Positions 5,778-6,691 of a stretch of DNA of 10,916 nucleotides are shown piece after piece. The translations under genes were made by a program, and so were the position numbers. Position 1 is the first letter of the stretch. The number at the start of each line of letters is the position of its first letter. The notes below the pieces were generated by a model, which saw only the letters and a program-made list of their open reading frames with translations, ran no database searches and had not been told where the DNA came from. This stretch comes from Escherichia coli (lineage in GTDB: Bacteria; Pseudomonadota; Gammaproteobacteria; Enterobacterales; Enterobacteriaceae): NCBI RefSeq assembly GCF_003334385.1, contig NZ_QOWN01000067.1; one strand, given 5' to 3'.

Positions 5778-6676
5778 TTCACAACGGTAAGCGGCTGATG
5801 GTGGAAGATTTTTACCGTGTCAGCGGCAATACGCTCTGCAGCAAAAATACCGCGCATCCGCGCCCAGGTGTTACTGTCGACCGAAGCAACCTGCTGCTTC
5901 TGCGCGGCGGTTAACATCTGCCAGAGCGGATCTTGTTGCCAGCGTTTAACAATGCTCTCTTCGCGATAGTGGGCAACCAGCAGCCAGGCAGGATTGACCG
6001 CCAGCAGTTGCTCCAGGCCGATGGACGGCATGGACGCACCCGCCATCGCAGCGGGAACGTTCAGCCCCAGAGAGGCCAGCACGCTGCCGGTCCAGGTCTC
6101 CTGAGTATGCAGGTTGAATTGCTGTTCGCGTGATGTGCCAAAGGCCACGCGTGTCCCTTTGGGAAGCTGGCTGGCCCACTGCGCCATCCTCTCTTTATGT
6201 TGTTCCAGACGTGCCTGCATCTCTCGCTTTTTACCCACCATTTCGCCGATGATAGCCGCAGATTGCAAATTTTCAGCGTAGGTTTTGTTGCGGGACTTAA
6301 GCAGCAGTACCGGCGCGATTTGCTGCAAGGCGATGTAAACCCCCGCATGGCGACTGCTGTCGGCAATGATCAGGTCTGGTTTCAGAGCGGCAATGGCTTC
6401 CAGGCTCGGCTGCGCGCGCGTTCCGACGGACTGCCACGGTTTCAGGTGCGCACGCACTTCGGGCAGGATGCGTTTTGCATCGTTATCGTCGGCAATACCG
6501 ATCGGGCTGACGTCCACGGCGGCCAGCGCATCGGCGAACGAGAGTTCCAGCACCACAATCCGTTGTGGCGTTTTTTCGAGTGTAAACGTGCCGTGTTCGT
6601 CCTGAACCATGGCGGCAAAGGCGTGGCTGATCACCAGCAGCAGGCCTGCAAAAAGAAAACGGATAAATGCCAACAT
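5774..6676 (-). CDS. fecB: Periplasmic ferric-dicitrate binding protein FecB
   Basis: Signal peptide (MLAFIRFLFAGLLLVISHAFA) followed by a periplasmic binding-protein fold. Start chosen at the ATG at 6676-6674 (300 aa) rather than the GTG at 6682 used by the ORF track. Confidence 0.93.
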   Translation of the reverse strand: MLAFIRFLFAGLLLVISHAFAAMVQDEHGTFTLEKTPQRIVVLELSFADALAAVDVSPIGIADDNDAKRILPEVRAHLKPWQSVGTRAQPSLEAIAALKPDLIIADSSRHAGVYIALQQIAPVLLLKSRNKTYAENLQSAAIIGEMVGKKREMQARLEQHKERMAQWASQLPKGTRVAFGTSREQQFNLHTQETWTGSVLASLGLNVPAAMAGASMPSIGLEQLLAVNPAWLLVAHYREESIVKRWQQDPLWQMLTAAQKQQVASVDSNTWARMRGIFAAERIAADTVKIFHHQPLTVVK

Positions 6677-6691
6677 AATCACATTCCAGCT

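Follow-up and report, generated by a model that had tools for sequence, protein, structure and literature searches.

The stretch of Escherichia coli DNA analyzed here (10,916 nt of contig NZ_QOWN01000067.1; hereafter, the window) encodes, on its minus strand, the ferric-citrate uptake operon fecI-fecR-fecA-fecB-fecC-fecD-fecE, with insertion sequences on both sides. The same gene order is annotated in records with 99.4-100% identity to the window over the regions compared. Read along the minus strand, the junction between fecA and fecB consists of the fecA stop codon UGA, the nucleotides uguguuaac, the stem-loop GCCCGGC-uug-CCGGGC, a UUUU run, agcu, the Shine-Dalgarno (SD)-like tetranucleotide GGAA, a single u and then, in succession, GUG, AUU, AUG and UUG GCA UUU AUC CGU (Table 1). 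The GTG at 6682-6680 and the ATG at 6676-6674 are in the same frame, two codons apart. The initial annotation had pointed to these two codons as an ambiguity of the fecB start, and its description of both translations holds: the open reading frame (ORF) list indeed places fecB at 5774..6682, with a GTG start and a 302-aa product that reads V/M-I-M-L-A-F-I-R-F-L-F..., and translation from the ATG indeed gives 300 aa, MLAFIRFLF..., the protein beginning with MLAFIRFLFAGLLLVISHAFAAMVQ.

Table 1. Features of the fecA-fecB junction and of fecB in the window
Feature	Coordinates	Strand	Basis or remark
fecA stop codon TGA	6721..6723	-	Sequence, ORF list and annotations; the fecA-fecB spacer is 44 nt
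GC-rich hairpin (6711-6696) followed by UUUU (6695-6692)	6692..6711	-	Terminator-like prediction, folding, literature
Shine-Dalgarno-like GGAA	6684..6687	-	7 nt from the ATG (aligned spacing 5), 1 nt from the GTG
In-frame GTG within the SD-to-start spacer	6680..6682	-	Incidental codon; unconserved, low initiation score
fecB initiation codon ATG	6674..6676	-	Seven annotations, orthologue conservation, position 1 of NCBIfam NF008501
Predicted Sec signal peptide MLAFIRFLFAGLLLVISHAFA	6614..6676	-	Sequence features; predicted cleavage after AFA
fecB coding sequence (300 aa and stop), periplasmic ferric-citrate binding protein	5774..6676	-	Annotation, profile, sequence

The surroundings of the operon include several features of their own. 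The small-protein gene ykiE (22 codons; 10740-10808, plus strand) is annotated between fecI and IS1 in the matching genomes and in K-12. Downstream of fecE, the window strain carries ISEc23 interrupted by IS421, whereas K-12 has IS911, IS600 and IS30. The transposase gene of ISEc23, an IS66-family element (77-1042, minus strand), carries two inactivating lesions in this strain. The first is the insertion of an IS421 (IS4-like) element, the end of which makes up bases 1-76 of the window, and two E. coli plasmid records match positions 1-140 at 97.9% identity; in addition, compared with strain GE3, a G-to-A substitution at position 361 converts CAG to TAG on the minus strand within the same gene.

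The start of fecB in existing annotations is uniform. A search of E. coli records with a 351-nt query spanning the fecA-fecB junction yielded 2770 matches, 2734 of these at 99% identity or higher; the identity to most records was 99.4%, and it reached 100% for strain 55989 and others. In all seven annotated records that we inspected, fecB is 903 nt long and starts at the equivalent of position 6676, a consensus that is partly non-independent because the PGAP pipeline propagates curated starts. Four of these records are from E. coli, namely, 55989 (identical over the 351-nt query), a laboratory strain with a 4.63-Mb genome, GE3 and K-12 MG1655, and the other three are Klebsiella plasmid records from different submitters, one of them deposited through ENA and one an older GenBank entry. 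The fecB of K-12 MG1655 (b4290, NP_418710.4; ferric citrate ABC transporter periplasmic binding protein), which is hand-curated, is thus among those with the ATG start. K-12 shares with the window the operon order, the 44-nt fecA-fecB spacer and the 903-nt coding sequence, and the junction itself is identical, including the GTG, the ATT, the ATG and the hairpin, so that the two fecB genes differ only by allelic changes in the coding region. In the K-12 genome record (NC_000913.3), the protein record of fecB, NP_418710, is at version.4, in contrast to those of fecA, fecC, fecD, fecE, fecI and fecR, which are all at version.1; the fecB record has been revised repeatedly, possibly with respect to the start as well.

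At least 1000 contigs encode the exact 300-aa FecB, the protein cluster of which has 2665 members. An exact match to the 302-aa form beginning with MIML was absent from a collection of approximately 15 billion predicted proteins, so that the GTG start is used neither by any annotation inspected nor by the gene calls in that collection. FecB scored 496.5 bits (cut-off, 320) with the curated NCBIfam profile NF008501 (PRK11411; Fe(3+) dicitrate ABC transporter substrate-binding protein). An N-terminal alignment with curated FecB sequences, proposed in the initial annotation as a check, comes out in favor of the ATG: positions 1-300 of the profile (of 303) align with residues 3-299 of the 302-aa form and, therefore, profile position 1 corresponds to the methionine encoded by the ATG, two residues after the beginning of the GTG-initiated product. 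Thus, the ATG start of fecB is already known and already used by the databases. With regard to the proposed ambiguity, both codons are present at the junction, but there is none that is live in the databases, and it arises solely from the rule by which the ORF track was made.

We estimated the strength of the two candidate starts with a simplified Salis-type script that combines the ViennaRNA duplex energy with the anti-SD, a spacing penalty and a start-codon term, with parameter values after Salis et al. 2009; the resulting score is a crude one. By this score, ATG6676 reached -4.49 kcal/mol (GGAA, at aligned spacing 5), compared with -0.05 kcal/mol for GTG6682, which has no usable SD. The SD of fecB is itself weak (GGAA, -3.3 kcal/mol), and the gap between the two codons, about 4.4 kcal/mol, amounts in the crude model to just a ~7-fold preference. 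The score therefore supports the ATG without proving it. The TTG at 6673 (codon 2) was also considered as a start and rejected, being a weaker start codon at a longer spacing, with a score of -2.19 against -4.49 kcal/mol.

In E. coli, initiation is not productive when fewer than about 4 nt separate the SD from the start, and of the initiator codons, AUG is preferred. The observation in the initial annotation that the GGAA is better spaced for the ATG is accurate, and it agrees with the range of spacings, 4 to 7, seen in the orthologues described below. A purine-rich motif complementary to the anti-SD, at an aligned spacing of about 4-8 nt, and the conservation of its position among orthologues characterize the canonical SD-led AUG site, and the fecB ATG has both. 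A first rival reading, in which fecB is translated exclusively from the GTG into a 302-aa precursor (MIMLAFIRF...), is exceedingly improbable. No start-type codon precedes the GTG in the open frame, and a product initiated there would retain a workable signal peptide, but this codon lies right next to the sole SD-like motif, with no alternative SD, and the database, profile and orthologue comparisons all speak against it.

The orthologous junctions provide comparative evidence on this point. Scanning a single genome from each species, we identified 31 fecB loci, including representatives of Enterobacter, Kluyvera, Citrobacter, Silvania, Pseudenterobacter, Xenorhabdus, Photorhabdus, Pectobacterium, Erwinia, Pantoea and Serratia; 30 junctions, from 12 genera and with 69-88% protein identity, were usable. 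The locus left out, L031 from the aphid symbiont Serratia symbiotica, is pseudogene-like. Its fecB homologue (positions ~1417-1500 of that locus) aligns from residue 29 only, with 59% identity, and contains an in-frame N-terminal stop; this is probably a decaying pseudogene.

An ATG is present at the position aligned with 6676 in 29 of the 30 junctions, the exception being Xenorhabdus, where an ATT followed by a TTG is found. Codon -2, the site of the GTG in E. coli, is a stop codon (TAA or TAG) in nine loci, all from Photorhabdus species, a non-start codon in 19 more, and a start-type codon in only two, namely, TTG in Pseudenterobacter and GTG in Xenorhabdus. More generally, 21 of the 30 loci lack any in-frame start-type codon upstream of the aligned start, and in seven others, such codons occur only nine or more codons upstream, in the hairpin or in fecA-proximal sequence. 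The best SD motif (GGAG, AGGAG, AAGGA, GGAGG or the weaker AGG) is located at an aligned spacing of 4-7 from the aligned start in all 30 loci; relative to codon -2, the same motif is at a spacing of at most 3, or no motif exists. The exceptional locus, L014 from Xenorhabdus koppenhoeferi, reads GGAG-ugaau-AUU-UUG (~1495-1506 of that locus) and is the sole orthologue without an ATG at the aligned start; its in-frame GTG at -2 overlaps the SD. Probably, the start of fecB in this species is the UUG, one codon further on, or else the rare AUU.

A second reading is that both codons are used, the AUG for the most part and the GUG as a minor start yielding a 23-residue signal peptide, with an identical mature protein and no functional consequence. 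The crude energy gap between the two codons is small enough to allow this, and, as the Ribo-RET paper also indicates, initiation in E. coli sometimes takes place at both of two neighboring in-frame starts. However, a second start that is conserved and equipped with its own ribosome-binding determinants, as would characterize dual initiation, is not what we found: the GTG is unconserved among the orthologues (start-type in 2/30, a stop in 9/30), there is no SD at a usable spacing from it, and the spacing to the existing SD is sterically unfavorable. Furthermore, there is no visible selection on the two intervening codons. In the Klebsiella plasmid fec operon, which is 98.6% identical, "codon -1" is changed from ATT to ACT, a substitution that would be non-synonymous if the codon were translated, and in Pseudenterobacter, there is a 1-nt length difference between the GGAA and the ATG. 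Both changes behave as expected of a spacer rather than of coding sequence. We consider dual initiation very unlikely.

The signal peptide bears on the choice of the start only to a limited extent. The N-terminus of FecB has the features of a Sec-type signal (a single basic residue, a hydrophobic core of 10 residues and the motif A-F-A), and cleavage is predicted after AFA (residue 21). In line with a periplasmic binding-protein fold, FecB is homologous to siderophore and iron binding proteins of known structure, with 8y4v as the closest (E = 1e-84), followed by HtsA, FepB and CeuE; the crystallized constructs 8y4v and 8y4y begin approximately two residues before residue 24 of the query, the predicted mature end. 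The initial annotation considered the signal peptide from the ATG to be cleaner. As an argument on its own this is weak, given that the hydrophobic core FLFAGLLLVI and the SHAFA|A cleavage region are common to the two precursors, which differ only in the number of residues before the single Arg, five from the ATG compared with seven from the GTG. A better argument is the length of the n-region: in 26 of the 30 orthologues, the N-terminus has the form M-x-x-x-x-(R/H), in which the basic residue occupies position 6 after exactly five others, and this length is conserved only when counted from the ATG. The further claim that only the boundary of the annotation is affected withstood the analysis, since the difference between the two starts falls inside the cleaved signal peptide and the same mature periplasmic FecB would be produced whichever start is used.

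Taken together, we are highly confident that positions 6674-6687 on the minus strand are an ordinary translation-initiation region of fecB, with the ATG as the start and the GTG as an incidental codon in the SD-AUG spacer. The 30S subunit would pair with the weak SD-like GGAA (6687-6684), and this pairing would set the AUG (6676-6674) in the P site at the optimal aligned spacing; the GUG (6682-6680) would then be a mere part of the 7-nt spacer between the SD and the AUG. The resulting 300-aa precursor, MLAFIRFLF..., would be exported via the Sec pathway and cleaved after AFA to yield the periplasmic ferric-citrate binding protein. The supplements of the TRAINSPOTTER N-terminomics study contain no entry for fecB, P15028 or b4290. 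The fec genes are expressed only under iron limitation in the presence of citrate and, hence, data sets obtained in standard media are probably silent on fecB.

Upstream of the initiation region, the hairpin GCCCGGC-uug(c)-CCGGGC has a predicted folding energy of about -13.5 kcal/mol and, together with the U-run, is flagged as terminator-like. As the work of Enz et al. 1995 is summarized in the review of Braun 2022 (PMC9249621), the hairpin downstream of fecA down-regulates the poorly transcribed fecBCDE relative to fecA, and trimming of the 6-kb fecABCDE transcript leaves a stable fecA mRNA of 2.5 kb. The hairpin of that work, to the extent that the review describes it, is the same as the one in the window, a GC-rich stem-loop with a U-run between fecA and the ribosome-binding site of fecB, and differs from it in nothing. 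Such a GC-rich hairpin is present in the fecA-fecB spacer at 27 of 27 junctions evaluated (26 orthologues and the window), with folding energies from -11 to -29 kcal/mol, a count that covers the junctions where the script located the end of fecA. The stem sequences vary by genus, from GCCCGGC/CCGGGC in E. coli to GCCGGGC/GCCCGGC in Photorhabdus, and the stems of Kluyvera and Citrobacter are far longer. This conservation of the hairpin fits the role of an attenuator or an mRNA stabilizer already described in E. coli. No structure that would selectively expose one of the starts was detected in the fold of the 91-nt junction, in which the stability beyond the hairpin does not exceed that of shuffled sequences (z = -0.03), and an Rfam scan of the whole window returned no family at the gathering threshold, which leaves the junction without a curated RNA element.

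Start-stop sites are known from initiation-profiling studies of E. coli, and the junction does contain the hexamer AUGUGA (6684-6679, minus strand), an out-of-frame AUG-UGA that overlaps both the SD and the GUG and might be construed as a regulatory mini-ORF modulating the translation of fecB. However, ATG6684 is without a suitably spaced SD, the best score being -1.57 kcal/mol with the GGGC in the hairpin stem, and a 6-nt motif can easily arise by chance. Among the junctions compared, the hexamer is confined to the E. coli and Klebsiella alleles; it is missing in Pseudenterobacter, the nearest junction from another genus (GGAATTGACGATG), and in all more distant orthologues. Such a regulatory function is extremely unlikely, and the hexamer is probably a product of chance. 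The broader idea that either the GUG or the AUG-UGA captures some of the initiating ribosomes, tuning the output of FecB downstream of the fecA-fecB attenuator hairpin, is speculative and, in our judgment, very unlikely to be correct; if true, it would represent a fine-tuning of the FecA:FecB stoichiometry specific to E. coli and Klebsiella.

In contrast to these readings, the preferred interpretation, initiation at the ATG, leaves the GTG with no role, and its presence in the frame is no more than chance would give. The frame of fecB is open over 12 codons, from an in-frame TAA (6715-6713) to the ATG. With the base composition of the window, the probability that a codon is ATG, GTG or TTG is 0.044, so that a stretch of 12 open codons contains one or more of them with a probability of 0.415. 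The GTG shows up as a fecB "start" only by virtue of a mechanical rule that opens each ORF at the first ATG, GTG or TTG after a stop. The same first-start rule over-extends fecD in this window: the ORF list gives 3826-5292 (minus strand), with a TTG start and 488 aa, running through most of fecC, compared with the annotated 3826-4782 (minus strand), with an ATG start and 318 aa, which makes the ORF-list version 170 codons longer. Both cases have the cause common to generic over-extension of the longest ORF; the fecB case differs in that the extension is just two codons and falls inside the cleaved signal peptide. The methodological lesson is that ORF boundaries drawn at the first start after a stop are not to be taken as annotation. 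For fecB, the gene in the ORF track is two codons too long, and the outcome of the present analysis confirms the established annotation of FecB as a 300-aa protein.
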